Sequence record: PZ049713.1
Source: a phage
DNA: 59,621 bases
Reading direction: 5' to 3' (one strand)
This document shows positions 7,468-41,934 of this stretch, in pieces (the first letter of the stretch is position 1; every line of letters starts with the position of its first letter). The notes beneath the pieces are model-generated. The model saw only the letters and a program-made list of their open reading frames with translations, was not told where the DNA came from and searched no databases. The translations under genes were made by a program, and so were the position numbers.

Positions 7468-7603
7468 GATCAGCAGCAAGGGCAGCCGCAGCAACAGCGT
7501 CAAGGCCAGCCACAACGCAGCCAGCAGGCGGCGCCTCCAGCCTATGATGACGATGTGCCATTCGCCAACCCCTACTGCGGCGCCCGCTCGCTGCTGATCT
7601 GAT
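7468..7603 (+). other. 3' fragment of the 58480-58818 gene, truncated at the inversion junction
   Basis: 7468 onward is collinear with 58684 onward (Gln-rich C-terminus ...DQQQGQPQQQRQ...); sequence immediately upstream of 7468 is inverted-copy DNA. Confidence 0.8.
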
Positions 7604-7646
7604 CCACCCCGGGCGCCCAGCGCGCCCTCCTCCCCGGTACACACCC

Positions 7647-7940
7647 ATGCTCATAGACAACCATGCCATAGCGCAGGGCGAGGCTCTGCGCGCGCAAATT
7701 GACGCGGCCACGGCTGCATTCCTGAACGCTGGCGGAAAGATCCAGCTGCTGCCCGACAGCATCGGCAAGCCGATAGAGATCAAGCCTGCCGTCTTCAACA
7801 ACGCCGGAAACGCGGAGGCGGACCAGCGCAGCCGCAAGCGTGGCGCCCGCAACTCTGCCGTATCGAACAGCCTCCCTCTGCGCAAGCGCGGCACTCCGCA
7901 GGCCAAGCAGAACGACGTGCTGCGGCAGGAGTGGCCATGA
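7647..7940 (+). CDS. Hypothetical early protein
   Basis: 97-aa ORF; identical copy at 58863-59156; stop overlaps next start (ATGA). Confidence 0.45.
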   Translation: MLIDNHAIAQGEALRAQIDAATAAFLNAGGKIQLLPDSIGKPIEIKPAVFNNAGNAEADQRSRKRGARNSAVSNSLPLRKRGTPQAKQNDVLRQEWP

Positions 7941-12282: not shown

Positions 12283-12630
12283 ATGGGCGCAGAGAAACTA
12301 GAGAATCTGCCGGAGTGGTTCCCCGACAAGGTGACTGAGCAGCAGATGGCCATGATACTTGGCACAACCGATCGAGCCCTAGAAGGCAGGCGAAGCCGGA
12401 ACCAGATTCCCGAGGGCGTCTGGAATCGCATCAATGGACGAATCTACTACAGCCGATCAAGGTACGAAGAATGGCAAGAAAGCCTATGGCACTGCCCACC
12501 GGAGTTGAGCTACGCAACGATACGATCCGCATCCGATTTAGCTGGAACGGAAAGCGATGCTCAGAAACCCTCGCCCTCCCCCCGACGCAAGCGGGCATTG
12601 CCGCTGCATCCCGTCTACGCGATCAAGTAG
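12283..12630 (+). CDS. xis: Excisionase-like DNA-binding protein (3' end uncertain, overlaps int)
   Basis: N-terminal ~65 aa (...VTEQQMAMILGTTDRALEGRRSRNQIPEGVWNRINGRIYYSRSRYEEW) resembles excisionase-family HTH proteins; immediately upstream of int. Confidence 0.5.
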   Translation: MGAEKLENLPEWFPDKVTEQQMAMILGTTDRALEGRRSRNQIPEGVWNRINGRIYYSRSRYEEWQESLWHCPPELSYATIRSASDLAGTESDAQKPSPSPRRKRALPLHPVYAIK

Positions 12631-13652
12631 TCCAGCAGATCAAGCACGGCATCTTCGACGAGCGTAAGTATGCCGAGCTCTTCCCGGGCTCGCCGAACGC
12701 CATATCGAGCGTTTCGCGCGGGTTCGGCCAGTACGCCCAGGTCTGGCTCGACAGCCGATCGATCTCGGAAGGCACGCGCGACAACTACAAGTCAGTGCTC
12801 AATGTCTGGTGGATGCCGTACCTGGCCACAACTCTCCTTCCCAACCTGACGACCGCCTTCATGCGCGAGCTAGTCGTTCAAATCCCATGGACCTCGGACG
12901 GCGTGAAGGCGAACGCCATGAACAAGCTGAGCACCATTCTCGAGTCGGCGGTTTCGGACAGGCTCCTGACGGAGAACCCAATTCAGGCGCTGGACATACC
13001 GACGCGGACGGAAGCGAAGGTCGACCCGTTCACGCAGGATGAGGCGGACAGGATCATTGCCAGGCTCTACGAAACGGAGCACTGGCCCAGCCAGATATAC
13101 GCTGCGTTCTTCGAGTTCGCTTTCTATACCGGCATGCGGTTAGGAGAGATCGCTGCCCTTCGCTGGGAAGAGGTCGATTTGAAGAGGCGTACGGTCCACG
13201 TCTGCAGGTCCGTAGCAAAGAAGAAGGTCGTCGAGCGGACGAAGACCAAGAAGGAAAGGTTTGTGCTGCTGAATGATCGGGCAGTGCATGCCCTTCTGTT
13301 CGCCAAGCAGTACGCCGAGCGGCGCGCGGCCGGCAGCGGGCGGCTGACAGATTTTCCGTTCTGCTTCCCGCCAAGCAAAAACTCTCAGTTCGTGCAGCAG
13401 ACAAGCGACCTGCATCACCAGTGGCGACCGACGCTAAAGGCGCTGGGTATTCGCTACCGGCCCCCGTACAATGCGCGCCACACCTACGCAACCATGTGCC
13501 TGATGGCCGGAATGACACCGGCATTCATCGCCAAGCAGCTCGGCCATTCGATACAGATTCTGCTGTCTCGGTATGCCCGCTGGATCGACGGCGAAGGCGA
13601 TTGGGCTGAGATGCGCAAATTGCAGTTTGCCCCAAAAGTGCCCCAAGCGTAG
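12471..13652 (+). CDS. int: Tyrosine-type phage integrase
   Basis: 393 aa; C-terminal catalytic region with ...ARHTYATMCLMAG...LGHSIQILLSRYARW... (R, H-x-x-R, Y). Confidence 0.9.
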   Translation: MARKPMALPTGVELRNDTIRIRFSWNGKRCSETLALPPTQAGIAAASRLRDQVVQQIKHGIFDERKYAELFPGSPNAISSVSRGFGQYAQVWLDSRSISEGTRDNYKSVLNVWWMPYLATTLLPNLTTAFMRELVVQIPWTSDGVKANAMNKLSTILESAVSDRLLTENPIQALDIPTRTEAKVDPFTQDEADRIIARLYETEHWPSQIYAAFFEFAFYTGMRLGEIAALRWEEVDLKRRTVHVCRSVAKKKVVERTKTKKERFVLLNDRAVHALLFAKQYAERRAAGSGRLTDFPFCFPPSKNSQFVQQTSDLHHQWRPTLKALGIRYRPPYNARHTYATMCLMAGMTPAFIAKQLGHSIQILLSRYARWIDGEGDWAEMRKLQFAPKVPQA

Positions 13653-13851: not shown

Positions 13852-14367
13852 TCAATTCCCCCTCACCGCGTCATAAGCTTTCTCACACGCCGACCCAGCT
13901 ATTCCTCGGTCATCGGCGACAGCAGCATAGAGTTGAGCAGCCGTTCCAATCCGGCCGAACAAGTCGGCTCGCACTCTGGCGGCGTCCTCGGCTGCCTGGC
14001 TGAGCTGGGCAGTGATGGCATTGCCGGCGTCACGACTGCGCTGCTCAGATGCTGCGAGGCGCAACTTGAGCCGCTCAAGAGCACTACCAGCGCGCTCAGC
14101 ATCGCTACGCGCCGCAGCCAGTTGTTCCTGTGCCTCTGCATCTGCTTTCTCCGTCGCGGCCTGGCGCCGCTGGTTTTCCTGAATGACGAACAGCGCAGCG
14201 CGGCGGTCGCGCTCGCTGACTTCGGTGCGGTAGGAGGCCAGATCGGCCTGCGCCTGCGCGGCGTCAGACTGCGCCGATAGCACCCGGATCTGCTGCCCGC
14301 CGGCCACGGCAGCCAGAGCCAGCACCCACCAGGCCCAGCTGGGCACGAACTTCAGCCAGGCGGTCAT
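13852..14367 (-). CDS. Rz-like i-spanin
   Basis: 171 aa; N-terminal TM (WAWWVLALAAVAGG) followed by Ala/Gln/Arg-rich coiled coil; embedded +1-frame ORF; adjacent to endolysin. Confidence 0.6.
   Translation of the reverse strand: MTAWLKFVPSWAWWVLALAAVAGGQQIRVLSAQSDAAQAQADLASYRTEVSERDRRAALFVIQENQRRQAATEKADAEAQEQLAAARSDAERAGSALERLKLRLAASEQRSRDAGNAITAQLSQAAEDAARVRADLFGRIGTAAQLYAAVADDRGIAGSACEKAYDAVRGN
13899..14102 (-). CDS. Rz1-like o-spanin embedded in Rz
   Basis: Alternative-frame ORF: MLSALVVLLSGSSC signal/lipobox-like start then Pro-rich stretch ending ...PPECEP; the lipobox is not canonical. Confidence 0.4.
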   Translation of the reverse strand: MLSALVVLLSGSSCASQHLSSAVVTPAMPSLPSSARQPRTPPECEPTCSAGLERLLNSMLLSPMTEE

Positions 14368-14843
14368 CGCATCACCTCACGCACGGCCGCGGCGAATCGG
14401 GCTGGCCAGCGATCCGGATGCGGTTTTCCAGGGCGCCATGTACGCAGGTACAGATCCCAGCCGCCCGCAGCGTCATGCTCGCCTGGCAGAGGCTTCGGGT
14501 CAGTCCATAGCAAAAGCCGGCCGAAGGCGAACGCCAGCACGTCGTCACGCTCGAGCGCAGCCCACACGGCGGCAGGCTCAGGCGCAACACCTCGAGCAGC
14601 ACACACTCGACGGGCGTGGTCGCGGCTCGAAGGGTGGCTCAGCACACCACGCACACCACCGCCCTGCTCGAACTGAAGCAGCCCGCGGGCCGGCCCGGTC
14701 GGCCACTGGCGGCGCCGCTGTTCCGGATCTTCCTGCTGAGTAATAGCAAGCAGCATGATCTCTGCCTCTCGGCTCGACATTCGCGCAGGCAGCAGCGCGA
14801 GAGCGGGCGCTATGGCGCGCTCCCGTATTTCAGAGAGGGTCAT
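14364..14843 (-). CDS. Endolysin candidate (lytic transglycosylase / SLT-like)
   Basis: ATG at 14843 (MTLSEIRERAIAPALALL...); SLT-like ...LLAITQQEDPEQ... region; ATGA overlap with Rz. Confidence 0.5.
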   Translation of the reverse strand: MTLSEIRERAIAPALALLPARMSSREAEIMLLAITQQEDPEQRRRQWPTGPARGLLQFEQGGGVRGVLSHPSSRDHARRVCAARGVAPEPAAVWAALERDDVLAFAFGRLLLWTDPKPLPGEHDAAGGWDLYLRTWRPGKPHPDRWPARFAAAVREVMR

Positions 14844-14985
14844 GGGTAATCCTTCAGACGAAAAAAAACCCGACTGGCGGGACGTAAACGAATGTCTCAA
14901 TCGGGTGGTGATAGTCGCCCCATTCGGGCATAATCCACGACTTCCTGAGCAGCGACTCTTTAGCTGTTATTACAAGGATGGGTAT

Positions 14986-16146
14986 ATGAGAAGCGCGTCA
15001 GGCATCTTTCTATTCGTGCTGTTCCCAGGATATTTCTTTTATCACATCGCATATAGCTTGGGCATGGTTCCTTATATTGGAATCTTCACAATCACTCTAG
15101 CCATTGCGTGTGGCTACTTCCTAATTAAGCTATTTATTGGACTTCTGAGAAATCCTTACCCGATAGTGTCATTTGCAGATGCATGCTTTGTTCTGTTAAT
15201 AATCACGCTGTCTGCAATTACCATCGTGAACCACACGCTTAATGACGGTGCGTATATCGATACGGACGGACTTGTGTTTAGCGCATCAATCATCGTATCG
15301 ATGACTGGGCTTTATTTTTTAGGGAGAAATATAGTTCTGGAGCAGCAAAAGAAATCGACGCTTGCAGCGCTGGCTTTACTAGCCGGATACCTCGCATGCG
15401 CGATAATTTTCTATCAAGAAAACGGCGGCTATATGCTGCTCCCCACTCCGAGCGAATCGGCGCCGGAGCCCTCAAATTATCAGGGCCTTGCCCGCTCGGT
15501 TATGTACTCGCTGATTTTCACTTTGCCCTTTATCAAGTCTGGGCTCATGAGATTCGTCTACGCTGCAGCCAGCCTAGCCTGCTTGTATTTGATCGGTTCA
15601 AGAACGGACTTCGCACTTTGCGCTATGGTGTTCCTGGTTTCGATGCTGATAAGGTCAAGCATTAGAGGCGCAGTTATGGCATATGGATTGATGATACTCG
15701 CCTTACCAGCCGCGCTTTATTTTCTCTACCAGTCCGACAGATTCGCGATCAGCTCCACCGACCCGTCACTTGTTGCGCGTGGAATATTCACCGAATCATC
15801 AATAGACGGAATTTCGGGTTCACCTATCCTTGGTGATTACCTCGGGCAGGTTAGAGACTTCGGCGACATTGGAAGTTACGCGCACAACGCTCTTTCCATG
15901 TACCAGCAATTCGGACTAATACCGTTCATTGCTTACATTGCATTCATTATTTTTAGCTTATTGATCGCAATCAAGTCTCTCGCTATAAATCGTCGATCTC
16001 CATACACAGAGCTTCTGCTGCATCTTTCCGTCGTTGCGCTGGCCGGGGTCTTGGTGGCGAAGTCAATACTCTGGACGACCCCAGTACTGGCCTGGGGTCT
16101 TGCGGTGAGCATAAGGAGAAATCGCTACGCTTGTATTAGGCCGTAA
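14986..16146 (+). CDS. Polytopic membrane protein, Wzy-like (O-antigen polymerase/ligase family)
   Basis: 386 aa from ATG 14986 with AAGGA SD; many hydrophobic helices; markedly AT-richer than flanks; between lysis genes and tailspike. Confidence 0.5.
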   Translation: MRSASGIFLFVLFPGYFFYHIAYSLGMVPYIGIFTITLAIACGYFLIKLFIGLLRNPYPIVSFADACFVLLIITLSAITIVNHTLNDGAYIDTDGLVFSASIIVSMTGLYFLGRNIVLEQQKKSTLAALALLAGYLACAIIFYQENGGYMLLPTPSESAPEPSNYQGLARSVMYSLIFTLPFIKSGLMRFVYAAASLACLYLIGSRTDFALCAMVFLVSMLIRSSIRGAVMAYGLMILALPAALYFLYQSDRFAISSTDPSLVARGIFTESSIDGISGSPILGDYLGQVRDFGDIGSYAHNALSMYQQFGLIPFIAYIAFIIFSLLIAIKSLAINRRSPYTELLLHLSVVALAGVLVAKSILWTTPVLAWGLAVSIRRNRYACIRP

Positions 16147-18182
16147 CCCTTCCATGATCCAGGCGAGCCCGCTACCACGCAAACCCAGCCGCTGTACTGG
16201 CCTGCGGACGGATATCTATTAACTACTCTGTCGCCGGAGTTCCATGTGCCGGTTGTAGGTATGGCTGTGCCGAACCATTCCTTACCGAAGTTGCCCGCTT
16301 GGAGGGTTTCGTAAAGGTACAGGACACCCCCTACAAATTGATTGTCAGCATAATATCGAAGCGGCTCGGCAGGGTTCTTAAAGCGCATTGCAGTTACACG
16401 GAAGCCACTCACAGTATTGCGCGCCACTGACATTGTTGACTGAGTGCCCGATTCGATGAATATGCCGTGCTCCATGAGCGTGGCGTTACCGCGAATGGTA
16501 TTCCCAGTGATTTCTTTCTCTGACCCTGCGGTGATATGAATACCCAAGCCAGCACCGATGCCGCCTGCACGCCCAACATCCTCCAGCTTGTTATTGCTTA
16601 TCTTTGCACCTACACCGTTTGCGTCGAAAATGCCTTGATACTGGGTTTGGCGAATACTGTTCCCGGTCGCAACTAGGTTCGAATACTGATCAAAATAAAG
16701 GCCGGAACGACCCACTACGGCGACAGAGTTGCCTGTAACGTTGGCGTCGGCCGCATACCGAACCGCAATACCATCTTGACCAACGTTAGCAATCGTATTG
16801 CCCGTAATGGACAAGACCTTGCAGCGCATAGGAGTAGCCGTTGGCCCGGTGTTGATAACCTGAATACCGTCACCACCAGACACACCGCTGATCGTGTTAC
16901 CCGTGATTGAAACCGAACCGCTGTTGCCGCCGCCAGCGTCATAATTTTGAACTTTCAGACCTGACGCAACGGTGTTGCGGATAGTGTTACCAGTAATCGA
17001 AAGCCCAAAAATGCCCGTGTCGCAGTACAAGCCATGCTCGGTAACGATGTCGTGTATCACGTTGCCAGTGACGGTCACATTCTCTGAAAGCTGCCCGATG
17101 ATTCCGCCAGACGCTGTTCCCGATATTCTATTACCAAACACATTTATGTTTTTGCCAACCAGGGTGAAGCCTGTTGTGTTTCTGTAGTTGGGGTCGTTCA
17201 GTACCGCGGCACCCGGACCATGAACAACGTTGTACGCGAAGGTCGCACCGTCGACAGGGAGGTTTGTCATCACCGGCGAATATCGGAAATCACGGAAGAC
17301 GTTACCGATAATTTGCAGATTGATCGCTTCGGAGCCGCTGACCCCGATAGCTTGCGATGCTGGGCTATTTACATAGGTCGCCTCGTCGGCACCAATCAAC
17401 TCCAAACCGGTCACGGTTACATCAGACAGGCCATCAGCATCGAACAGTACCGTTTGCACCGCCGTTTGCCGGATCACTGCATGCCGCCCTGACAGATAAT
17501 GGCCAGACCTTAGCTGGAGCTTCCCATTGACCAGGTAATGATCACTCGCGTCACCGAAATCGACGTATAAGCCTGCATTCAGCGCAGCTTGGATTGCCAC
17601 CGTATCATCAGTAACCCCGTCCGCTACCGCGCCGTAAGAACGAGGGCGCACCGTCTTGTCGCTTTCTAGTATTTCAGCGACGGTCCGCGTACCCAGTCGT
17701 ACAAGACTAGCGCCTTCCGCTGCCGCCAACTCCTGCCGCAGCACGTCATCCCCAAGCAGCACGAGGCTGGCAGAGTCAGTCGCCCAAGTGCCAGTGAGCT
17801 CCAGAGGAAGCGTAGCGTCAGGGCCGGGCCGGTAGAGGCCTGCGGTCGTACCGGTAGTGGCCGCATTGACTGCAACGTACTCGTTCCGCTCCTCCAGTAC
17901 GACATTGGCCGCATAGTCGCCCTTGCTCACATAGCCGGAAGACACGAGAAACGCCTGGAACCGGCTCTCCTTATCGGCCTGACTCAGTGTGAACGCGGTT
18001 TCGCGGCCTTCCTGCGCATTGTTGAAGCTGTTTTCCATGCCGGACCACGACTCGCGCAGCTTGCCCAGTCGGTCGGCATAGAACGGATCTGCGCCGTTGA
18101 CCAGCTTGTCGAGGTTCTCGGCGTTGTCGTACAGGTCGCGCGGATCGGTGGACGGGACGTTGTTGCCGGTATTGAATGTCAT
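16125..18182 (-). CDS. Tailspike protein with right-handed beta-helix (depolymerase-like)
   Basis: 685 aa; repeated ...TGNTI/TGNV... strands (VTVTGNVI, SITGNTIRN, SITGNTISG, ITGNTIAN, VTGNSVAV, ATGNSIRQ, ITGNTIRG); last gene of the tail operon. Confidence 0.7.
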   Translation of the reverse strand: MTFNTGNNVPSTDPRDLYDNAENLDKLVNGADPFYADRLGKLRESWSGMENSFNNAQEGRETAFTLSQADKESRFQAFLVSSGYVSKGDYAANVVLEERNEYVAVNAATTGTTAGLYRPGPDATLPLELTGTWATDSASLVLLGDDVLRQELAAAEGASLVRLGTRTVAEILESDKTVRPRSYGAVADGVTDDTVAIQAALNAGLYVDFGDASDHYLVNGKLQLRSGHYLSGRHAVIRQTAVQTVLFDADGLSDVTVTGLELIGADEATYVNSPASQAIGVSGSEAINLQIIGNVFRDFRYSPVMTNLPVDGATFAYNVVHGPGAAVLNDPNYRNTTGFTLVGKNINVFGNRISGTASGGIIGQLSENVTVTGNVIHDIVTEHGLYCDTGIFGLSITGNTIRNTVASGLKVQNYDAGGGNSGSVSITGNTISGVSGGDGIQVINTGPTATPMRCKVLSITGNTIANVGQDGIAVRYAADANVTGNSVAVVGRSGLYFDQYSNLVATGNSIRQTQYQGIFDANGVGAKISNNKLEDVGRAGGIGAGLGIHITAGSEKEITGNTIRGNATLMEHGIFIESGTQSTMSVARNTVSGFRVTAMRFKNPAEPLRYYADNQFVGGVLYLYETLQAGNFGKEWFGTAIPTTGTWNSGDRVVNRYPSAGQYSGWVCVVAGSPGSWKGYGLIQA

Positions 18183-21838: not shown

Positions 21839-22332
21839 TCCTCGTTAATCCCCTCGTCAAACGCACCCATGAAAGTCTGGTATTTCGATTCGGGCCATTC
21901 GCGGTTCATGGACTTGTCAAATAGGCTCGATAGCAGAATGTACTGCGGCGCATAAACCGCCCAACCAGGCGCAACCTTCGGTTTATCGCGCAGCTCAACC
22001 CTCGCCGTGTAGGCCCATCGATCGATCCCGAACAGAGCCGGCCCTTGCGGGCTTTCGAGGAATCTCGCCTGGTGCTCGGTTAGGCCGATCGGTGTCCTGA
22101 GCGTGAGCGCGAACCAGCCGGCGCCAACCACGTCGTCTGCCCAGCCTTCGAACAGCTGGGCCTGAGGCGTCGTGAATATCCAGCGCAACGACACGAATGA
22201 CGGGACGCTGGTGAACCTTATCCGCTGCCTAGCGCGACCGCTCTGCATCTCGGTGCGAAGGATTTTGTTTGCCGCCTCAAGCGCAAAGCCATCCCTGGTC
22301 GGAAACGGAAGCTCTACTGGATACTCAATCAT
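21826..22332 (-). CDS. Minor tail protein
   Basis: 168 aa, immediately downstream of tape measure. Confidence 0.45.
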   Translation of the reverse strand: MIEYPVELPFPTRDGFALEAANKILRTEMQSGRARQRIRFTSVPSFVSLRWIFTTPQAQLFEGWADDVVGAGWFALTLRTPIGLTEHQARFLESPQGPALFGIDRWAYTARVELRDKPKVAPGWAVYAPQYILLSSLFDKSMNREWPESKYQTFMGAFDEGINEEWPE

Positions 22333-25300
22333 CGACCCACTCCAGATATGCCGAACTTCCGTCCGATTGCTTGCGATGCAGGTCCGTCGCTATAGATGTC
22401 AGCGACGAATGCGTTCACGTTCCACGAGCCATCGCTGTTTTTAGTCTTCTCGACCTTGCCAGCCTTGCTTGAGTCCTCGATCAGGTTGACGTTGACAGTC
22501 ATGTCGCCGCCACCCTCACCGCCGCTTGAAAGGAAATCCTTCAGGTCGGCGTTCGTGCGCTGGTCAACGACTCGCTCTCCCTTGTCGAGTAGCCATGTGC
22601 CTTCCCGAGGCACGCTGTCGATACCGTCGTGCGCCATGCCGGCAAGCGCCAAGCCAGAAACCGCGGCAGCCATTGGCTCAGTTACAGCGAGCGCCGATGC
22701 CATTGCGGCAGGGGCCATCGCCCACCCAGTGATTGGTATCGCCGCGGCGCTCGCATAGGCGTTAATCCCAGCTTGCAGCGCGGAGGCTTGCGCATTTGTT
22801 GCCATAGCCGAGGCGGCGCTAGATTGCGTAGTCTTTCCGACTAGCAGCTGTACAGCCTGATAGGCAAGCCATTGCGCAGCCATCTGCCCAAGAGCGTTGA
22901 CTACAGAGCGCGCCATCCCTTCAGCCATGCCAGAAACTGCATCGCTCAACGATTCGGCGTCGAATACCATTGATTCGAAGGCATCGCCGAAGCGGCTGCT
23001 GAATCCTTCCACGACATTGCCGGCCAGCTCGTCGAAATTGCCAAGGCTTTCCTCGGCCGCGGCAAGGTATCGCTCCCAGTAGCTGCCATTGACCTCAAGC
23101 AGCTTCTCGTCGCGCTCCTGCTCCAGCCTGATCATGGCCTCGTTGCGCTCTTCTGCAGTGAGCAGCGTTGCGTCCATGATGATCTGGCGGCGGCGCTCGT
23201 AAGACGCTAGGATGGCCTCCTCTTCGGTCATTAGGGCATCGATGATCGATACCGCTTCCCGATTGGTATTTTCCTCAGCCTCGTTGACCTGACGGAGCGC
23301 CTCCGCTTGCTTCTCGTAAGCCTCAACCGCCTGCAAGGCATTGCGAGCACTAGCCAACTGAGACTCTGATGCGCCGTCCATTGACAGCTTGTACAGCGTC
23401 GCCTCGGTCGCGCTCATGCCAAGCATCTGCGCCTGCAGCTCAAGAGCCGATATCTGCTGCTTGAGGTTCTTCTCGGATGTCTTGCCGCGGGCGCGCTCGG
23501 CTTCTTCTAGTCGATAGAGCTGCGTAGCGAGCTGTTCGGCCTCTTCGCGTTCCTCCTTGGTGGCATCAGCGCCAAGCGACTGGATAGCTGCCAGGCGAGC
23601 CCTGGCTTCACCTTGCAGTTTCGCCAGGTCAAGCTGCTCACGCATCCGGGCAATTGCTTTCTGCCCCTCAGTGCTGGTCGTTGGCTCTTCCTGGTCGCTC
23701 AGTTCAGGTGCCTTGCTGCGCTTCGCTATCTCGTCATCGACGGCGCGCAGGCGCTTGCGGTACTTCTCCAGCGCCTCATCAGCGATCAGTGCCTTCTCTG
23801 CCGTGCGCTCCAGTTCTTCACGCCACTCTTGCGCCTTCGCGCTGTTCGGGTAGCGCTGCAGATTGTTGCGCAGCGTTTCGACGCGGGCGTTTAGTGCGGT
23901 GAGTTCGCCGGCCGCGCCGCTGGATTCGGTTTCAATCTTGGTCAGCAGATCCGCGCGCAGAGCGCGCAGCGTTGCATCGCCGAGGTCATTGACCGACTCG
24001 GTAAGCAGGTCGACCGGCTGCTTGGCGTCACGGGCGTTGCTAGCGAAGGTGTAGAGCGCCCCGGCGGCGAGCAAAACCACGCCGGCCGGGCCGCCGAGCA
24101 ACGCCATGGCACTGCGCAGCCCGCCGGCAACGATGGTTCCGACACGCATTGCGCTGTTGAGTGCGTTCTGTGCTGCGGCCTGGTTGGCTGCAGCCTGAAG
24201 CGCCACGGCTTGCGCGGCCGACAGGTTGCGGGCTGCGATCGCGTGGGCGTTGGTGCCCTTGGCGGCCTCGAACTCTGCCCTGGCGACAGCAAGGGCTGCC
24301 ATGGCCGACTGACGCTCAGCGGTAGCACTGGCAGCCGAAACAGCCAGCACCTCGCGCTCTTTTATGAGGCGCGCCCGCAAGGCAAGAAGAGCCTGCCCAT
24401 TCGCTGCGGTCCACGCCAGCATAGCGCTAGTCAGGCGCGCACCGTACGCAATGGCGACGAGTTCAGCAGCGGTACTGATGCCGTCGAGCGCACCCTTCAT
24501 CGCCTCAGTGTCTTCGCTGAACGCGAGTACTGAGTCAGCGGCTGCGATGATGCTATCGGTGACGCTCTGGATCGCCCCGCTCTGGTTCTCGAATGCGACG
24601 AGAATCGCGGTTGTCGCTGTCTTGGCGCGAACACCTGCATCGGTCAGGTTGCTCGCCATATTGGCGGCGGCCTTGGCGTTCTCGTCCAGCGACTTGCGCA
24701 GGCCTTCGGACAGATCACGCGCAGAGAGCTTTCCGGCGGCGCCCATTGCGCGGATCTCTGCCGAGGAACGACCTGTTGCCGCAGCGATGTCATTGATCAC
24801 CGATGGCAGGGCATTGGTGATTGTTTCCCACTGATCGGCGGCCACCTTGCCGGTGTTCATCGACTTGGAGAATGCGCTGATTGCCGTCTCGGCACGCTCG
24901 GCACTGGTGGCGTTCTTCACGAACGCATAGGACATAGAGTCCGTCACGTCCAGCGCCTGCTGAGTCGAGTAACCCATGCTCCGAAGGCTGTCGGCGGTGC
25001 GGATGTACAGCTCCTGGGCTTCCGACAGCGAACGGTAAGTGCCGTTAGCGGTGGCCAGCAGGCGGCGCTGCACAAGCTCGAACTCGGCTTGGCTGCTTGT
25101 GGCCATCTGCACGCGCTCGGCCATCTCCTGGTACGTCTGCACCAGGCCGGCAGCAGAGCGCAGCGCAGATACCGAAACAGCGGCGGCAAGGGTTGTGCCA
25201 AGCGCAGCCACGGCGGTCTTCAGTTGCCCGGTAGCAATGGCATTGCGGCGCGTCTGGCGCTCCAGCTGATCGAACCCACCTTCAGCCTTGCGGGATGCAG

Positions 25301-25382
25301 CTTCCAGGCGATCCAGATCGCTTGCAGCCTTCAGGCCGCTTGTGCTGTCCACGCTCAGGACAAGGCGGGCGTATTCGGTCAT
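22329..25382 (-). CDS. Tail tape measure protein
   Basis: ~1017 aa, Ala-rich helical; in-frame ATG at 25382 preceded by GGAGAAAA; ORF-track start 25412 lies inside an upstream hairpin. Confidence 0.85.
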   Translation of the reverse strand: MTEYARLVLSVDSTSGLKAASDLDRLEAASRKAEGGFDQLERQTRRNAIATGQLKTAVAALGTTLAAAVSVSALRSAAGLVQTYQEMAERVQMATSSQAEFELVQRRLLATANGTYRSLSEAQELYIRTADSLRSMGYSTQQALDVTDSMSYAFVKNATSAERAETAISAFSKSMNTGKVAADQWETITNALPSVINDIAAATGRSSAEIRAMGAAGKLSARDLSEGLRKSLDENAKAAANMASNLTDAGVRAKTATTAILVAFENQSGAIQSVTDSIIAAADSVLAFSEDTEAMKGALDGISTAAELVAIAYGARLTSAMLAWTAANGQALLALRARLIKEREVLAVSAASATAERQSAMAALAVARAEFEAAKGTNAHAIAARNLSAAQAVALQAAANQAAAQNALNSAMRVGTIVAGGLRSAMALLGGPAGVVLLAAGALYTFASNARDAKQPVDLLTESVNDLGDATLRALRADLLTKIETESSGAAGELTALNARVETLRNNLQRYPNSAKAQEWREELERTAEKALIADEALEKYRKRLRAVDDEIAKRSKAPELSDQEEPTTSTEGQKAIARMREQLDLAKLQGEARARLAAIQSLGADATKEEREEAEQLATQLYRLEEAERARGKTSEKNLKQQISALELQAQMLGMSATEATLYKLSMDGASESQLASARNALQAVEAYEKQAEALRQVNEAEENTNREAVSIIDALMTEEEAILASYERRRQIIMDATLLTAEERNEAMIRLEQERDEKLLEVNGSYWERYLAAAEESLGNFDELAGNVVEGFSSRFGDAFESMVFDAESLSDAVSGMAEGMARSVVNALGQMAAQWLAYQAVQLLVGKTTQSSAASAMATNAQASALQAGINAYASAAAIPITGWAMAPAAMASALAVTEPMAAAVSGLALAGMAHDGIDSVPREGTWLLDKGERVVDQRTNADLKDFLSSGGEGGGDMTVNVNLIEDSSKAGKVEKTKNSDGSWNVNAFVADIYSDGPASQAIGRKFGISGVGR

Positions 25383-25402
25383 GCTTTTCTCCGGGCATGA
25401 AA

Positions 25403-25423
25403 AAGCCCGCACTAGGCGGGCTT
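25403..25423 (-). terminator. Intrinsic terminator-like hairpin after lipoprotein moron
   Basis: Minus-strand RNA AAGCCCGC-cuagu-GCGGGCUU followed by UUUCAUG; 8-bp perfect stem. Confidence 0.5.
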
Positions 25424-25434
25424 CGTGAGGTCAT

Positions 25435-25815
25435 TTACTGCTGCTTTGGTGGCTGGGACTGCTGCATGACTTTGTAAGAGGCCTCAATTGTTTTCTGACT
25501 GGCCTCCATCATATCGGCTGTCAGCGTCTGGTTCCCCCATCGCGCAACCTTCCCGTTCTCAAAGGTCACGACCAATCGATCCTGGGCGAGCTGCTCGTTA
25601 TCTACCGGGGTGAAGCCAATCACGACCGGGTTCCAGTAGATCCAACGCTCGCGATCTTCGTTCACATCAGTTCTTCGGGGGAGGCCCATGGTCGCCTGTA
25701 CGTCAGCTTTTGACATTCCCAGCGACAAGTTCATGGACTGCCGGTTGTAGTCGATACGGTTGTTCGCGCAGCCTGCGATGATGAGCATCGCGGCAAAGAT
25801 GAGAATCTTGCGCAT
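25435..25815 (-). CDS. Lipoprotein moron (possible superinfection-exclusion factor)
   Basis: 126 aa; signal peptide MRKILIFAAMLIIAGC with lipobox; own SD (GGGAGAGG); between tail chaperone and tape measure. Confidence 0.65.
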   Translation of the reverse strand: MRKILIFAAMLIIAGCANNRIDYNRQSMNLSLGMSKADVQATMGLPRRTDVNEDRERWIYWNPVVIGFTPVDNEQLAQDRLVVTFENGKVARWGNQTLTADMMEASQKTIEASYKVMQQSQPPKQQ

Positions 25816-25847
25816 GGTTCCTCTCCCTGTTTGAAAGGGTCAGATTA

Positions 25848-26240
25848 TCACCGATTCTCGGCCATCGCCTTCAGTGCAGCGCGCTCCATGATCTGGATCG
25901 CCTCCAGGTGGTCGCGTTGCTGCTTGCGCTTGACGCGGTTCATTCGAAACAGCGACTCAAGGGCCGAGTAGTCAAGCCCTGTCGGCCCATTCATACCCAT
26001 GCGCCACTGGGTCTGCATCGAAAGGAAGATGTCGAACACCTGCCAGTTCTCTGGCCAGATTCCGAACCGCTCTTCCGGGAAGTCTTCGGGGCGAAGGCCG
26101 AAGCGGGCCATCTCTTCGGGGTCGGCGTCCTTCCTGAAAAGCCGCTCGACCGCCCCCTCTAGTTTCCCCGGCGGCCGTCCACCAGGGCGGTGATGTACGC
26201 GGAGAAGATGGCTTTCGGGGCCATGACGTAGTTCTTGCAC
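25848..26240 (-). CDS. Tail assembly chaperone -1 frameshift extension (T-like part of G-T fusion)
   Basis: Overlaps G by ~80 nt in the -1 frame; after slippage at GGGAAAC (26162-26168) reads ...GKLEGAVERLFRKDADPEEM..., matching the ORF-track translation. Confidence 0.6.
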   Translation of the reverse strand: MQELRHGPESHLLRVHHRPGGRPPGKLEGAVERLFRKDADPEEMARFGLRPEDFPEERFGIWPENWQVFDIFLSMQTQWRMGMNGPTGLDYSALESLFRMNRVKRKQQRDHLEAIQIMERAALKAMAENR

Positions 26241-26470
26241 AGCAGCTCGATGCTGGCCGGGCTGAATTCTTCGTCGAGATCCCAGCCCGCCAGGATTTCT
26301 CCAAGCAATGCGGGGTCTTTGATGCTCTTGTTCTTGACCAGGGCGTCGAGGCTGTCCTTGTCGCGGTGCTTGAACTCCATCACCGGCTTGGCAACCTGGC
26401 CATCAGGCAGCGGGATTTCTACCGGCGCCTTGAAGGTAGGGTTCGGGGTCAGGGTGAATTTCACGCTCAT
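26159..26470 (-). CDS. Tail assembly chaperone (G-like)
   Basis: 103 aa; ends ...RRGN* with slippery heptamer GGGAAAC in the last codons. Confidence 0.7.
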   Translation of the reverse strand: MSVKFTLTPNPTFKAPVEIPLPDGQVAKPVMEFKHRDKDSLDALVKNKSIKDPALLGEILAGWDLDEEFSPASIELLCKNYVMAPKAIFSAYITALVDGRRGN

Positions 26471-26524: not shown

Positions 26525-27172
26525 TTATGCGGCGTAACGCATCGGCTCCGAAGTCAGCGAAACGGTGCTCTGCAGGCCCATCAGCTCGTTCTTGGTGAGC
26601 GTCGGGGTCTTGTTCAGGGTCACATAGCCGTTGTAGTAGATCGCCGAGCCGGACGGCAGCACGACCGACACAGCACGCGGAATGCGGTCGTCGTTGGCGT
26701 CGGACAAGATGCTGTACCAGGGCAGCTCGGCGTCGTCGCCGATGGTCATGGCGAAGCTCGACGCGCTCTTGACGGTCGGGATCTGGTGCTCGACATCCTC
26801 CTCGAGGAACGAGTAGGTGACGAACTGCTGCTCGCCGCCCGAAGTGGTGAATTCCAGAACCTGGGTAATCTGCTGCCAGGTGCTGACCTTGCGCACGGAG
26901 CCGGCGCCACCGCCAGCCGGGTACAGGTTGGTCGAGGCGGTGTTGATGCCTTCCAGCTCGAAGGTGTCGGCGGTCACGTTGGCGACCCGAGCGACGCGGC
27001 TGTTCAGGCGCGACCAGCCGGAGGTGACTTCGACGATATCGCCATTGGCCAGGCCGTGGCCCACTGCAGAGGCGACCGCCGGATTGGCGTTGGATACAGC
27101 AGTAACTGTGATCGGCGCGGCATACGCGGAAGCGATGGATACTACGGCGCCGTTGGGTAGGCTCACACTCAT
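26525..27172 (-). CDS. Major tail protein
   Basis: 215 aa; position directly upstream of chaperone genes. Confidence 0.6.
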   Translation of the reverse strand: MSVSLPNGAVVSIASAYAAPITVTAVSNANPAVASAVGHGLANGDIVEVTSGWSRLNSRVARVANVTADTFELEGINTASTNLYPAGGGAGSVRKVSTWQQITQVLEFTTSGGEQQFVTYSFLEEDVEHQIPTVKSASSFAMTIGDDAELPWYSILSDANDDRIPRAVSVVLPSGSAIYYNGYVTLNKTPTLTKNELMGLQSTVSLTSEPMRYAA

Positions 27173-36470: not shown

Positions 36471-37205
36471 TCACATTAGAAGCGTGAACTGCCCATCCCA
36501 CGAATCGGACTTCTTTAGGTTCAGCTTGGCCCACATGGGGCGCAGGTTGTTTAGGCTGTTTGCAGCTTTTAGCTGCACGGGGTCAGTCAGATCAAAGGAT
36601 GACAGCGGTCTAATGTGGTCGATATGCCACTTATCCCTGTTGTGCCAGCCCATTCCACTATGGAATAGCGCTTCAAGGTGCTGGGCAAGGTCAGAGGCTG
36701 AATAGCCTAGGCATTCGGCAGTAACGTCTTCTTTCGCCTTCCCAACAAGCTCCAAGCAGCGCCTTATCATGCATCTTGATGCCTCTGCCGCCATCCCTTG
36801 CGGCGTCGATCTTCGACGCTTGCCTCTAATTGAGATTGACACTCTGCCCTTTTCAGACTTGGCATACTCAGCCTTGCGCTGGCGATACTCTTTAGTTTTG
36901 CGTTTGGCGCGAATCTTCTCTTGGAATTCAGGAGAGTAGTATTTCCTCCTAAGGCGCTCTTTTGCTTGTGGCGTAGCGTTTCTGGACTTCGCCCTTGCGC
37001 TACGCTTCGCCCGGTACTCCTCAGACTCTTCGCGTCTTGCTGCTCGCTCTCTCTCGCACTCTAGACAGTGCCCGGTTGCAGAAGACCTTTCCGAGTAATG
37101 CTCTCTGCGGCACGGGATGCCCGTAAAGTATTTGCTGAGCCCGACCTCTTTCGCTACTGAGCGCGAGACAATATGAATGCACGCGGATAGACTTGCGTCA
37201 GTCAT
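36471..37205 (-). CDS. HNH endonuclease, terminase-associated, with N-terminal zinc module
   Basis: 244 aa; C-terminal ...WHIDHIRP...NLRPMWAKLN...; N-terminal KYFTGIPC...GHCLEC module. Confidence 0.7.
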   Translation of the reverse strand: MTDASLSACIHIVSRSVAKEVGLSKYFTGIPCRREHYSERSSATGHCLECERERAARREESEEYRAKRSARAKSRNATPQAKERLRRKYYSPEFQEKIRAKRKTKEYRQRKAEYAKSEKGRVSISIRGKRRRSTPQGMAAEASRCMIRRCLELVGKAKEDVTAECLGYSASDLAQHLEALFHSGMGWHNRDKWHIDHIRPLSSFDLTDPVQLKAANSLNNLRPMWAKLNLKKSDSWDGQFTLLM

Positions 37206-39035: not shown

Positions 39036-39581
39036 TTATGCCGCTTGCTCAGCAATCAACCCCTCATTACCGAGGATCTCCTGCGCCTCAACCAGCGCTT
39101 GATCCACTTGGCGCTCCAGGTCACGGCGAATGTCCCGGCGCCACCGCTCCAGTGTCTTTTGCGGGCGGCCGTCTTCGTCCCAGCGGTCAAGCTCATACCA
39201 TGCGGCCGGCAATACGCTCGTGCTTCGCTTCCCTTCCGCGCCGGGCAGCTTCGGGAATGCCCAGGTGGCTACGGCGCACTGGATGAACCGGCCAGGTGCT
39301 GGCGACTTCACCGATCCGGCCAGCGCCATCATCGCATCGTGCTTGCGCTCCAGATGGGTGCTGTACTTGGCGACGAGCGCCAGCCACAGACCAACCGGCA
39401 GCGCCTTGTGCAGGCGACCATGGACCCAGCAGTCGGTTAAGAATGCCTCTTCCTTGCCGCAGATCGCCCCAGGCACTCGCTGGTCTTGCACCTTGGGGTC
39501 AAAGTCCACGCCGCCAGCGCTATTGATCGTCTCCGCAGCCAGAGCCCGGACTACTGCTGATACAACTGATGGGTAGGTCAT
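39036..39581 (-). CDS. Putative late-gene regulator (Q-like antiterminator candidate)
   Basis: 181 aa; positional only, last gene before the terminator-containing late leader; no motif recognised. Confidence 0.25.
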   Translation of the reverse strand: MTYPSVVSAVVRALAAETINSAGGVDFDPKVQDQRVPGAICGKEEAFLTDCWVHGRLHKALPVGLWLALVAKYSTHLERKHDAMMALAGSVKSPAPGRFIQCAVATWAFPKLPGAEGKRSTSVLPAAWYELDRWDEDGRPQKTLERWRRDIRRDLERQVDQALVEAQEILGNEGLIAEQAA

Positions 39582-40723
39582 CAGAACAATCTCCCAAGGG
39601 ATGCTGCGAATTCGTAAGGGTCTTTAGCGCTCTTGCGCAGGTTGCAAGGCGGGCACGCGATAACCAGATTGTCGACCACGTGCATTCCACCCTTCGATAG
39701 CGGCTGATAGTGGTCAACGTGATAGTTGTTTTCACACTTTGATTTGCACCAGTGGCAAAACTTTGGAACTGATCGCTCCCAGGCCATAATCACGGACGTA
39801 CTATCGCCACCAGCCTCTAGCTGTCTGCGCCTAGCCTTGTACGCTTTAGATATCGCCTTCCTGATCTCTGGATTCTTCTTTGCCCACTCTTTGGCTTTCT
39901 GCGCCCTTACTTCCCTGTTTTGTTCGTTGCGAATTCTCGCAAGTTGAATGATCCGATCCCTGTTTTCAGCAAGGTATTTCCGGTCGTACTCTTTTTTAAG
40001 TTCAGACCGTGAGAAAATTGCCAAGCACTCGACACATGATCCGGAGGCTGTATATTTCATGCCGCTGTGGCCCTTCGAGCACGGCCGTCCGACATACATT
40101 AAGGCGCCGCTTTCGAGCGCTATCTTTCGTGCGCTCTTGGCTATCCTGCGCTCCTTGCGACGAGCAGCTACCTCCGCCAGCCGAGACGATCGCTCTTCTG
40201 AGATTCGCTTGCGCTCTGCCTTCCCCTTCTCGTACTCCTCCAGCGTCATTCCGAACTTGGCGGCTGCCGATATAGCCTCGCATGTCCGGCAGCGATCAGT
40301 TGATACGTAGCGCTCTGCTGAATGTCCGTTAACGCACGGCAATCCGATGCTGTAGAACATCAGCCCGGCATCCATAGCAGCTTGCCGGAGAGAAGCGCGC
40401 CGTTCCCTCTCAGCTTTCCGCACGGCCAGCCCTGGATCTCGCTTCAGCCGTCGCGACATTTTCTTCTCTGCGCACAAAGGGTCAGAGTCACGCCGCAGCT
40501 TTTGCTCAGCGCGCTCGGCCTCTATGTTCGCGTGATACTTAGCTTTCCTCTTCAGCCTGGCGCACTCACAGCACGCGCCATTGATCGTGGCCCTGCTGGC
40601 GACGTGACCGGCAGGGCAAGGCTTGCCAGTGAAATAGGATTTGCTGCCGGCCTCCTTCGCCTCTTTTCGGCTGCAAGGAAGGTTCAAGTCATCTTGATCT
40701 TTGTTAGAATTCAAATCAGCCAT
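39581..40723 (-). CDS. HNH endonuclease with three N-terminal zinc-module repeats
   Basis: ~380 aa from ATG at 40723; C-terminal HVDHYQPLSKGG...NLVIACPPCNLRKS; three YFTG/YSIG/YVGxPC...GH...CxEC repeats. Confidence 0.65.
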   Translation of the reverse strand: MADLNSNKDQDDLNLPCSRKEAKEAGSKSYFTGKPCPAGHVASRATINGACCECARLKRKAKYHANIEAERAEQKLRRDSDPLCAEKKMSRRLKRDPGLAVRKAERERRASLRQAAMDAGLMFYSIGLPCVNGHSAERYVSTDRCRTCEAISAAAKFGMTLEEYEKGKAERKRISEERSSRLAEVAARRKERRIAKSARKIALESGALMYVGRPCSKGHSGMKYTASGSCVECLAIFSRSELKKEYDRKYLAENRDRIIQLARIRNEQNREVRAQKAKEWAKKNPEIRKAISKAYKARRRQLEAGGDSTSVIMAWERSVPKFCHWCKSKCENNYHVDHYQPLSKGGMHVVDNLVIACPPCNLRKSAKDPYEFAASLGRLF

Positions 40724-40806
40724 TTGTCGCTCCCATATAGCGCTAATGGTTAGGGCCGGCAGTGTGTTCCCGCACTCTGCTGGCCCGTTCAATTCTACCA
40801 AATTAA

Positions 40807-41934
40807 TCAAGCACATAACATTTCCGGCACAACTTCGTTAACTGCTACTCGCCCATATTCCTTGTGGTAGGTAATACCTATTGCGCGGCGGTTAGAGGCA
40901 TAGCCGAGTCTGGCTGCATATGATCCGGTCGCAGTCAGCGTCGGATGCCTGCGAACTATCATTCCGTTATGCGTAGCGACCTCTTCCTTGTGGTAGTGGC
41001 CGGTGTGCGCCTCTCTGTGCTTTGTGCAGCCCCAAATCTCGGGGAAGTTCGCCGCGAAGATGCCCGGCAGGTCCGAATTGCGCGCCTTGTGGCCGTGATG
41101 AAAGCCGAGCATCGTCTTGCCGTGCTGGTAGACGTAATACGGCGTCTCGCTCATGTTCACTTTCAATCTCGGCTCGTTTTCATATAGAGCCTCGAACATA
41201 TGGCGCAACCACAGCGATCCGGCCAAGTCATGGTTGCCCTCTGCAATTACCAGATGGACTTCCTCGTGCTTTGCCAGCGCCATATCAATAATGCTGCGTA
41301 GAACTTTGATACTAACCCGCACCAACTCTGCATATATGCCAGAGACGTTGAGCGGGTGCCGATTGGTTGGCGTTACTGGCTCCAGTCCGTCAAACGTCAG
41401 GAAGTCGCCTAGCTGGTTGATGACGCAATATCTCGCCTTGGCCGATGCGTTGATCATTGCGGCAAAGCAGCCGACAAGCACGCGCTCGGCTTCTTCGAGG
41501 TTCCAGTCGGCGCCACCCTGGATGGCAGTCGCGTATTCCCCGATGTGACAGTCCGTCAGGGTGTACAGGTTGCACAGCGCGTCGTCGGTTTGGGCAGGCC
41601 CGCCCATTGGCGCCAAGCGGTCTATCTGTTCGCCCATTGCTGCGGCTGCGGCGTGCATTAGCTCTAGCTGCCGTTCGTGGTCGATGCTGGACTTGACCCA
41701 CTGCAGCTTCTGCTCGCCGTCCTTGCCGTACAGTGTCGACGTGCCTTTCAGGTGGAAGCCGTCCGGCACGCTCTTGGTCATGTCGTGCTCCGGGCTCCAC
41801 CCCTGACGAGCCAAGCGCGCCTTATGGGTGTAGACGTTGCGCTCGTGCAGCCCAAGGATCTGCGCAGCCTCTGCCACAGTGCGGCCAGTCAGCGCGGCCT
41901 TGATTTCGTCGTCTGTCGCTTTGCGTGCGGCCAT
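40807..41934 (-). CDS. HTH-containing calcineurin-like metallophosphoesterase
   Basis: 375 aa; N-terminal HTH-like stretch; TDCHIG, GDFLTFDG, EGNHD, GFHHGH motifs. Confidence 0.5.
   Translation of the reverse strand: MAARKATDDEIKAALTGRTVAEAAQILGLHERNVYTHKARLARQGWSPEHDMTKSVPDGFHLKGTSTLYGKDGEQKLQWVKSSIDHERQLELMHAAAAAMGEQIDRLAPMGGPAQTDDALCNLYTLTDCHIGEYATAIQGGADWNLEEAERVLVGCFAAMINASAKARYCVINQLGDFLTFDGLEPVTPTNRHPLNVSGIYAELVRVSIKVLRSIIDMALAKHEEVHLVIAEGNHDLAGSLWLRHMFEALYENEPRLKVNMSETPYYVYQHGKTMLGFHHGHKARNSDLPGIFAANFPEIWGCTKHREAHTGHYHKEEVATHNGMIVRRHPTLTATGSYAARLGYASNRRAIGITYHKEYGRVAVNEVVPEMLCA

Follow-up and report, generated by a model that had tools for sequence, protein, structure and literature searches.

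Cor, found in phages phi80, N15, HK022 and the mEp phages, and Llp of phage T5 are outer-membrane lipoproteins that inactivate the receptor FhuA. The lipoprotein Ltp of the Streptococcus thermophilus phage TP-J34 reportedly acts after adsorption, where it blocks DNA injection via the tape measure protein (TMP) of the incoming phage. In phage HK97, gene 15 was the first moron to be described, and it occupies a slot between the tail chaperone and tape measure genes; its product gp15, an exclusion protein made by the prophage, prevents genome injection in a manner that depends on the tail of the incoming phage (PMC3594210). A further exclusion gene, P-FimU, lies between the tube and chaperone genes of Pseudomonas F10-like phages (PMC12952977), and mEpimmI coliphages encode exclusion lipoproteins within their structural cluster (PMC11893012). 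Here we describe a gene for a predicted lipoprotein of 126 amino acids (aa) that occupies the HK97-type slot in a phage genome (sequence record PZ049713.1), the complete stretch of which, 59,621 nucleotides (nt) long, is called the window below. Judging from sequence comparisons, the segment that carries this gene is very probably an autonomous, horizontally mobile moron cassette.

The closest parallel is HK97 gene 15. Both genes occupy the same late-operon slot, encode a small envelope protein, deviate in G+C content, carry their own transcription signals (predicted ones in the window) and are present in some relatives and absent from others. Both also represent a co-opted bacterial family, which is YebO for gp15 and the BamE superfamily for the window lipoprotein. 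However, the two proteins share no sequence or fold relation: gp15 sits in the inner membrane by way of a transmembrane helix, whereas the window protein has a lipobox and is predicted to reside in the outer membrane. Homologues of gp15 are confined to Enterobacteriaceae, whereas phrog_18614, the family of the window protein, is found in Pseudomonadales, Oceanospirillales, Burkholderiales and Enterobacterales. Furthermore, exclusion by gp15 was shown experimentally, whereas exclusion by the window protein is proposed by analogy.

Cor and Llp resemble the window protein as small phage lipoproteins that are encoded in or beside tail genes and face the periplasm from the inner leaflet of the outer membrane, the location predicted here as well. 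In contrast, they have no PHROG or Pfam homology to it and are tied to one receptor, whereas the window family spans hosts without one common variable receptor. Ltp offers the likeness of a lipoprotein exclusion factor encoded by a prophage, but it serves in a Gram-positive host, has a helix-turn-helix-repeat fold and is encoded in the lysogeny module, whereas the window gene lies in the tail module.

A cassette between the tail chaperone and tape measure genes

The locus comprises the following features, given by their positions in the window.

26525-27172, minus strand: tube protein gene (Pfam Phage_tail_3)
26159-26470, minus strand: gene for tail assembly chaperone G (Pfam Phage_TAC_4), upstream neighbour
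26162-26168, minus strand: -1 slippery heptamer GGGAAAC, read from the sequence, just before the G stop
25848-26240, minus strand: chaperone T frame (Pfam DUF1799), upstream neighbour
25842-25850, minus strand: extended -10-like motif TGATAATCT (TGnTAnnnT), whose TGA is the stop codon of the T frame
25408-25847, minus strand: variable cassette (moron) of 440 bp, the segment that differs from Pseudomonas phage PS-1 by blastn
25820-25827, minus strand: Shine-Dalgarno (SD) sequence GGGAGAGG, read from the sequence, ending 4 nt ahead of the ATG
25435-25815, minus strand: lipoprotein coding sequence, 126 aa, stop codon included, taken from the list of open reading frames (ORFs) and starting MRKILIFAAMLIIAGC
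25768-25815, minus strand: signal peptide and lipobox MRKILIFAAMLIIAG followed by C, read from the sequence; Cys16 is the predicted lipidated first mature residue
25402-25424, minus strand (25399-25424 with a 5-U run): intrinsic-terminator-like hairpin GAAGCCCGC-CUAGU-GCGGGCUUU, 9-bp stem and 5-nt loop, from RNA folding
25383-25398, minus strand: conserved junction ATGCCCGGAGAAAAGC, shared with PS-1 and holding the TMP SD GGAG at 25389-25392
22329-25382, minus strand: TMP gene, 1017 aa, ATG at 25382 (TMP_3, E = 2.7e-43; phrog_339, E = 3e-122)

The boundaries of the cassette follow from comparison with phage PS-1, which matches the window across the whole tail region. Direct blastn alignment gives roughly 91% identity on both flanks of the slot. 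The homology ends at position 25848, the last base of the T stop codon, and restarts at 25407, inside the T-run that precedes the ribosome-binding site of the TMP gene. PS-1 carries a different cargo in the same slot rather than an empty site. Its 2830-bp cassette (PS-1 positions 4905-7734) is P22 immI-like and encodes, by PHROG matches, a divergent Arc-like repressor, a Mnt/Arc-like ORF, two antirepressors and a small ORF; it ends with its own terminator directly ahead of the shared ...TGCCYGGAGAAAAGCATG. RefSeq mis-annotates genes of this PS-1 cassette as 'partition protein ATPase'. Both P22 immI-type cassettes and the P-FimU genes resemble the window cassette in using tail-cluster junctions as landing sites for accessory or conflict genes (PMC12952977), although their cargo consists of regulators or pilin mimics, whereas that of the window is a predicted outer-membrane lipoprotein.

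By the description of morons that goes back to Hendrix and Juhala, such a segment is extra DNA between two genes that adjoin each other in a homologous relative, deviates in base composition, has its own promoter and terminator and is expressed from the repressed prophage. Here, the content between the flanks amounts to 440 bp compared with 2830 bp in PS-1, and the G+C fraction of the lipoprotein gene is 0.549 compared with 0.596-0.633 for the G, T, tube, TMP and major capsid protein genes. A putative terminator and a promoter-like motif were read from the sequence, although a generic scan called neither. An earlier note on this DNA had read a moron at 25403-25847 between the tail chaperone and tape measure genes. 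That interval is a nearly exact match to the segment that varies against PS-1, and the position is borne out by G and T (Phage_TAC_4 and DUF1799) on one side and TMP_3 on the other. The moron architecture is likewise strongly supported by the differing PS-1 slot, the deviating G+C content, the presence of an SD and a terminator belonging to the gene itself, the recurrence of the same gene in unrelated tail modules and in other slots, and the location in the slot of HK97 gene 15.

The 126-aa ORF encodes a real protein family. It matches phrog_18614 with E = 5.6e-40 and the Pfam BamE domain (PF04355) with 28.8 bits, above the gathering cut-off of 23.2; its PHROG matches are phrog_18614 and phrog_3135 only, both of them families without an assigned function. 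Among 5.8 billion proteins searched, 127 proved homologous, at 53-99% identity, and an alignment of 30 homologues contains 33 invariant columns, including the lipobox Cys. Codon comparisons place the gene under strong purifying selection, with ratios of nonsynonymous to synonymous substitution (dN/dS) of 0.04-0.14 in pairs with unsaturated dS (0.06 against locus L004, where dS is 0.28, and 0.04 against L026). In most other pairs the synonymous sites are saturated, yet the mature proteins are 56-67% identical. Thus, the family matches, the number of homologues, the invariant columns and the low dN/dS rule out a chance ORF.

Spread and transcription signals of the cassette

To describe the distribution of the gene, we classified 88 loci, from 74 viral contigs and 14 genome loci, by placement. 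Its occurrence is sporadic: it is present in 14 of 185,579 species' reference genomes, compared with the 74 viral contigs. Carriers are prophages of Stutzerimonas, Alcaligenes, Halomonas, Klebsiella-type, Salmonella-type, Serratia, Pectobacterium and other hosts, whereas an enterobacterial homologue, used as a DNA query, found no counterpart in 5,426 complete E. coli genomes. The placements fall into three slots and a remainder.

Upstream of the TMP gene: 48 of 88 loci, with at least seven TMP types; 33 are directly adjacent
Between the lysis cassette and the terminase genes (slot C): 32 of 88 loci, one Klebsiella-type lineage, with a GH108 endolysin and spanin-like ORFs upstream and lambda-type small and large terminase genes downstream
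Directly after the TMP gene: 2 of 88 loci, plus the Flyfo siphovirus Tbat2_3
No clear slot, or chromosomal remnants: 6 of 88 loci, including two truncated Alcaligenes copies

An obligate link between the lipoprotein and the TMP was considered, as the first five contexts were all of the chaperone-TMP kind, but it was abandoned when the wider survey revealed the lysis-terminase and post-TMP placements. A 703-aa 'big ORF' that lies downstream of the gene in 32 loci was likewise taken for a TMP and proved to be a lambda-type terminase. The chaperone-TMP junction is therefore a preference of the lipoprotein gene, with no fixed rule.

The gene travels independently of the tail genes that surround it. 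Homologues from Stutzerimonas, Alcaligenes, Halomonas and Enterobacterales prophages, whose tube and chaperone proteins are unrelated, are 56-96% identical. The slot between the chaperone and tape measure genes holds individual homologues in contigs of Stutzerimonas, Alcaligenes, Rahnella, Halomonas and Salmonella type, and the Pfam families of the tube and chaperone proteins at these contigs differ (YdaY/TAC_18; TTP_11/TAC_13/Phage_tail_T; Phage_tube_2; Phage_tail_2/DUF6246). At loci without any tblastn similarity to the tube, G or T proteins of the window, the lipoprotein is still 56-84% identical. That the lipoprotein gene is mobile follows from its conservation where the tube, G and T proteins are dissimilar.

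Some loci carry two or three lipoprotein genes in tandem, including the gene with the predicted BamE fold that is homologous to the window gene. The small lipoprotein or signal-peptide genes that adjoin it belong to phrog_7441, phrog_19981, phrog_2320/13160 and phrog_29243 and lie at these positions within their loci:

L042: 5489-5899 and 6384-6707
L002 (Flyfo siphovirus Tbat2_3): 4613-4969
L026: 5574-5969
L013: 6449-6799
L015 (Salmonella-type): 6384-7004

A phrog_7441 gene stands upstream of the BamE-fold gene in both a Salmonella-type locus and the Flyfo phage, that is, in different slots, and relatives of phrog_2320 stand beside it in Stutzerimonas- and Halomonas-type loci. In Salmonella-type loci (L015 and L016, 3500-5900), the slot additionally holds Arc, Bro-N and ORF6N genes. 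The chaperone-TMP slot is a general accessory-gene island.

Several individual loci show further peculiarities. In the Flyfo phage, the homologue lies at 4044-4460, in a post-TMP accessory block that is annotated with a YafO-type toxin gene. The Stutzerimonas-type locus L006 has an HNH_3/AP2 homing-endonuclease-like gene at 1558-2073, between the tail terminator gene and the major tail gene, and the call of the latter is shortened (150 aa compared with 215). In Alcaligenes parafaecalis and A. aquatilis (L097 and L099), truncated or start-less lipoprotein copies lie at about 6000-6345 among transporter- or oxidoreductase-like ORFs, in chromosomal surroundings that do not look phage-derived, and are probably remnants of decayed prophages.

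Transcription signals accompany the gene. In the window, the hairpin begins 10 nt past the TAA stop of the lipoprotein gene and is followed by the 5-U tract, then AUGCCCGGAGAAAAGC, then the TMP ATG at 25382. The 71-nt segment that contains it folds at -21.1 kcal/mol, and the z-score of the hairpin, -1.6, is unremarkable when taken alone. A canonical intrinsic terminator follows the lipoprotein gene in nearly all 57 distinct loci and in all three slots, typically AACCTCGC-TTCG-GCGGGG and then T6-8; the loci that depart from this have a further lipoprotein gene overlapping the stop. The window hairpin is more than a chance fold because a terminator is conserved behind the gene in almost every lineage. 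The 126-aa ORF, the lipobox, the SD and the hairpin behind the gene, which the earlier note had described, were all recovered: the ORF at 25435-25815, the lipobox as I-A-G-C with a Cys that is invariant in 30 of 30 aligned homologues, the SD at 25820-25827 and the hairpin, conserved across lineages, at 25402-25424 with its 5-U run.

Downstream of the terminator, the sequence (A/T)TGCCYGGAG(A)AAA leads to the start of the next gene in both the pre-TMP and post-TMP slots of distant lineages. As the (A/T)TGCCYGGAG motif precedes whichever gene comes next, the junction supplies the SD for that gene.

Upstream of the gene is a conserved extended -10-like element that the earlier note had not recorded. 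The pattern TGnTAnnnT, which combines the extended -10 with the three most conserved positions of the hexamer, occurs in 34 of 47 distinct upstream regions, representing all three slots, and mostly 34-41 nt before the start codon (around -38). Control regions of the same loci yield it in 0-3 of 46 cases, and shuffled sequences in a mean of 4.3 of 47, with a maximum of 11. Most of the remaining upstream regions lack the TG but keep a TAnnnT hexamer at the corresponding position. In the window, the motif overlaps the T stop codon; in L028, a relative with 81% identity, the motif TGGTACGCT lies about 30 nt away from the T stop, and because the two are separated there the motif can be assigned to the cassette. 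This pattern supports the view that TGnTAnnnT is a promoter element of the cassette.

The lipoprotein and its proposed function

The protein begins with a basic n-region and a hydrophobic h-region and continues with a lipobox of the form [LVI][ASTVI][GAS]C, as is characteristic of lipoprotein signals. It is the only ORF with a canonical lipobox found in the window. In E. coli, Asp at position +2 keeps lipoproteins from the Lol pathway, and in Pseudomonas Lys-Ser at +3/+4 has this effect. The window protein has Ala-Asn-Asn at +2 to +4, with no Asp at +2 and no Lys+3/Ser+4 inner-membrane retention signal, and from these residues we infer a periplasm-facing location in the outer membrane.

An AlphaFold2 model built from the 30-sequence alignment has a mean predicted local distance difference test (pLDDT) score of 80, with values of about 85-95 over residues 21-90, and consists of two short helices, a beta-sheet and a C-terminal helix at residues 98-119. 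Foldseek comparison with the PDB returned BamE (5wam_B, E = 6e-4) along with many E chains of BAM complexes, OsmE (4dm5), the Bacteroides type VI secretion system (T6SS) immunity protein BtiO (E = 6e-3) and many BLIP/beta-lactamase complexes. A search of BFVD folds gave only uncharacterized lipoproteins or BLIP-like proteins. The modelled protein thus has a BamE/OsmE/BLIP-type fold with an added C-terminal helix, and this fold is widely used for protein binding or inhibition.

Although the protein carries a BamE domain, it is not a BamE orthologue. It shares with BamE/SmpA/OmlA and with OsmE its nature as a lipoprotein and an alpha-alpha-beta-beta-beta domain that scores above the PF04355 gathering threshold, and the family motif GMSKxDVxxxMGxP...RW.Y resembles that of BamE. 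Unlike BamE, the window protein is prophage-borne and sporadic, and possesses the extra conserved C-terminal helix. A search of NCBIfam found no family at E<=0.1, a profile scored only marginally against PDB BamE chains (E 0.26 to 1.6) and a single-sequence search against solved structures gave noise only. Among 1.84 billion representatives, a profile search matched 6 clusters at E<=1e-30, 27 at E<=1e-10 and 209 at E<=1e-3; because the numbers at the outer thresholds are so small, the bulk of BamE proteins lies out of reach. Orthology to BamE was rejected on these grounds, namely the lack of an NCBIfam match, the marginal profile scores, the small family size and the prophage tail-operon setting in as few as 14 of the 185,579 species' genomes. 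The family is small and tight, at the edge of the BamE superfamily. Databases name its members 'BamE domain-containing protein'.

The lipoprotein most likely changes the cell envelope of the lysogen, and by analogy with described systems exclusion of phage entry is a plausible form for this change. The cassette is arranged as a putative extended -10-type promoter element, an SD, the lipoprotein ORF and a putative intrinsic terminator. In the lysogen, the gene would be transcribed from its own weak promoter and transcription would stop at its own terminator, with additional transcription by read-through of the late operon during lytic growth. The lipoprotein would then bind a conserved envelope component of the lysogen and act against infection at a post-adsorption stage, for instance by keeping the tail tip, tape measure or DNA from passing the outer membrane or periplasm.

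Superinfection exclusion is ranked first among the possible functions because HK97 gp15 is encoded in the same slot and because P-FimU, mEpimmI, Cor, Llp and Ltp provide precedents; it is held tentatively, as somewhat less than an even chance. That the target may be a conserved host component rather than a variable receptor is suggested by conservation of the family across three host orders and at least seven TMP types. A post-adsorption block is the favoured guess because a tailspike and a weakly Wzy-like protein may already cover receptor-level conversion. The explanation as a whole, a mobile moron cassette with an exclusion function, comes close to an even chance while staying below it.

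Several observations weigh against this explanation. On the side of function, our survey of the literature for phage BamE-like, SmpA or OmlA lipoproteins found no experimental paper on the phrog_18614 family, no homology of the lipoprotein to Cor, Llp, Ltp or HK97 gp15 was found (for Cor and Llp by PHROG and Pfam), and a PADLOC search gave no defence-system match for it. Cor and Llp are receptor-specific, whereas the phrog_18614 family, with its 33 invariant columns, is nearly uniform across hosts of three orders and at least seven TMP types. This uniformity argues against simple masking of a variable receptor and suits roles other than exclusion equally well. Also, with a beta-helix tailspike and the weakly Wzy-like protein encoded in the prophage, receptor-level exclusion may already exist. 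On the side of the cassette signals, a generic promoter and terminator scan found neither the window hairpin nor a sigma-70 promoter on the strand of the gene; the U-run of the hairpin is short (5), and the -10 hexamer TAATCT of the window matches 3 of 6 consensus positions in addition to the TG, with no -35 element found. Both signals emerged only when lineages were compared with one another.

One apparent link to a tested exclusion protein was rejected. The product mEp013_85 of coliphage mEp013 is 30% identical to the window protein and belongs to phrog_18614, but it is confined to mEp013, with Lys at position 2. The type-C Lpp of mEp013 that was tested has Gly at position 2 and is common to mEp010, mEp044 and mEp554, so it is not mEp013_85.

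The alternative that survives best is that the lipoprotein is an envelope-fitness or lysogenic-conversion factor unrelated to exclusion that influences how the envelope is built or how stress is tolerated, either as an additional BamE/OsmE-like subunit with effects on the BAM complex or on membrane and peptidoglycan homeostasis, or as a source of Bor-like resistance. We consider this unlikely, yet a serious contender. The Pfam BamE domain and the fold matches to BamE and to the osmotically inducible OsmE point in this direction, as does the very high conservation over Beta- and Gammaproteobacterial hosts, which suggests a conserved host target, and the complete set of transcription-unit signals would suit expression in the lysogen. 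Yet NCBIfam and profile searches find no BamE orthologue in the lipoprotein, and hosts retain a BamE of their own. The repeated placement in tail or late operons beside small lipoproteins and antirepressor cassettes is, moreover, typical of a neighbourhood of phage-phage conflict. Morons that serve host fitness are nevertheless well known, such as lambda Bor and Lom (PMC3594210).

A bolder reading would make the cassette a pan-proteobacterial, plug-and-play defence, in which the lipoprotein mimics BamE on BamA/BamD or engages another conserved periplasmic structure crossed by siphovirus tails. This would explain why the sequence is nearly invariant across three host orders and why the cassette travels with its own promoter, terminator and downstream SD; by our estimate it is improbable. 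If true, many different phages would be unable to deliver their genomes, or BAM-dependent invaders such as contact-dependent inhibition toxins would be kept out.

Slightly more doubtful again is a periplasmic inhibitor or immunity protein that neutralizes an incoming enzyme or toxin active in the periplasm. Its target might be a T6SS effector, a bacteriocin or the domain with which a superinfecting phage tail degrades the cell wall; in the last case the effect would amount to exclusion. The Foldseek matches to BtiO and to BLIP/beta-lactamase complexes and the 'BLIP'-like phage proteins in BFVD are in keeping with this idea, and the conserved charged residues R47, R48, D50, R55, E56, R57, D72, E74, D79 and R80 would suit a protein-protein interface. 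However, the similarity is at the level of fold only (TM 0.4-0.6, 13-20% identity), no cognate toxin gene is nearby in the loci inspected and the family is too uniform for an immunity protein in an arms race.

A role in the phage's own cycle, as an outer-membrane spanin or lysis accessory, a TMP-tied tail-assembly factor or a virion component, is very improbable: although the gene points in the same direction as the late operon and would be part of its transcript, encodes an outer-membrane lipoprotein as o-spanin genes do and lies upstream of the TMP gene in 48 of 88 loci, PS-1 has flanking tail genes of about 91% identity without it, it turns up behind the TMP gene and at the lysis-terminase boundary as well, an exported and lipid-anchored protein cannot join tail assembly in the cytoplasm, and the lack of a C-terminal transmembrane segment speaks against a u-spanin. 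As individual candidates, an o-spanin of the Rz1 type, a small proline-rich lipoprotein encoded within or beside the i-spanin gene, was rejected because the prophage has its own Rz/Rz1 genes about 11 kb from the lipoprotein gene, while slot-C phages have a separate candidate o-spanin, read from the sequence, adjoining it; an essential tail or virion function was rejected because PS-1 does without the gene, the gene also occurs outside tail modules and its product is exported.

Prophage setting and wider meaning

The phage that hosts the cassette is a temperate siphovirus prophage of Stutzerimonas type. An integrase gene lies at 12471-13652 in the window and a gene for a CI-like repressor at 48916-49590; the window also contains lysis genes and, on the minus strand, the tail and head module. 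The genome around the cassette has about 60% G+C, and the top protein matches of the window are from Stutzerimonas stutzeri.

In lambda, the slippery heptamer of the chaperone genes is GGGAAAG. The GGGAAAC heptamer of the window opens into the DUF1799 T frame and predicts a G-T fusion chaperone; the assignment of G and G-T is sound because this heptamer, at the G stop, leads into the T frame.

Other parts of the prophage bear features that are distinct from the cassette.

13852-14367, minus strand: Rz-like i-spanin (phrog_312, DUF2514)
13899-14141, minus strand: Rz1-like ORF, proline- and Cys-rich, embedded in Rz in the +1 frame
14755-16146, plus strand: multi-transmembrane ORF of 463 aa, between the lysis genes and the tailspike gene
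16125-18182: beta-helix tailspike gene
36471-37205 and 39581-40816, minus strand: two paralogous endonuclease VII/HNH-like proteins (phrog_1035/1081) with repeated Cys-rich modules

The lipobox of the Rz1-like ORF is non-canonical (LLSGSS, then Cys) and so was missed by a strict lipobox search. The 463-aa ORF lies on the opposite strand, and its G+C fraction is strikingly low, 0.46 in a 1-kb stretch compared with 0.60 overall. It has a weak match to Wzy_C, the O-antigen ligase/polymerase family, at E = 0.002, which is under the cut-off, and no PHROG or NCBIfam match; it looks like a second, serotype-converting moron beside the receptor-binding protein. The endonuclease VII/HNH-like pair lies on either side of the holin and small-terminase region, which precedes the large terminase gene.

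In its architecture, the cassette is a textbook moron in a textbook slot, and its protein was already present in databases as phrog_18614 or 'BamE domain-containing protein' with no assigned function. What is new is the exact definition of the cassette boundaries, the occurrence of the gene in three slots and several host orders, the strong purifying selection on it and the conserved promoter-like, terminator and downstream-SD signals that move with it. The strong purifying selection, the wide range of carrier prophages and the movement as a compact unit with conserved transcription signals are all signs that the family has an important role. The precise junctions illustrate how cassettes can be exchanged at the boundary between G/T and the TMP gene while the tape measure is still translated normally.

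Among the main sources of the phage resistance and lysogenic conversion that prophages confer are morons in tail operons. Should the lipoprotein exclude phages by way of a conserved host target, it would represent a resistance determinant of broad action and easy transfer, with relevance to phage therapy and the prediction of host range, and it would offer a handle on how siphovirus tails pass through the outer membrane and periplasm. If it modulates the BAM complex instead, it would represent a rare case of phage interference with outer-membrane biogenesis.

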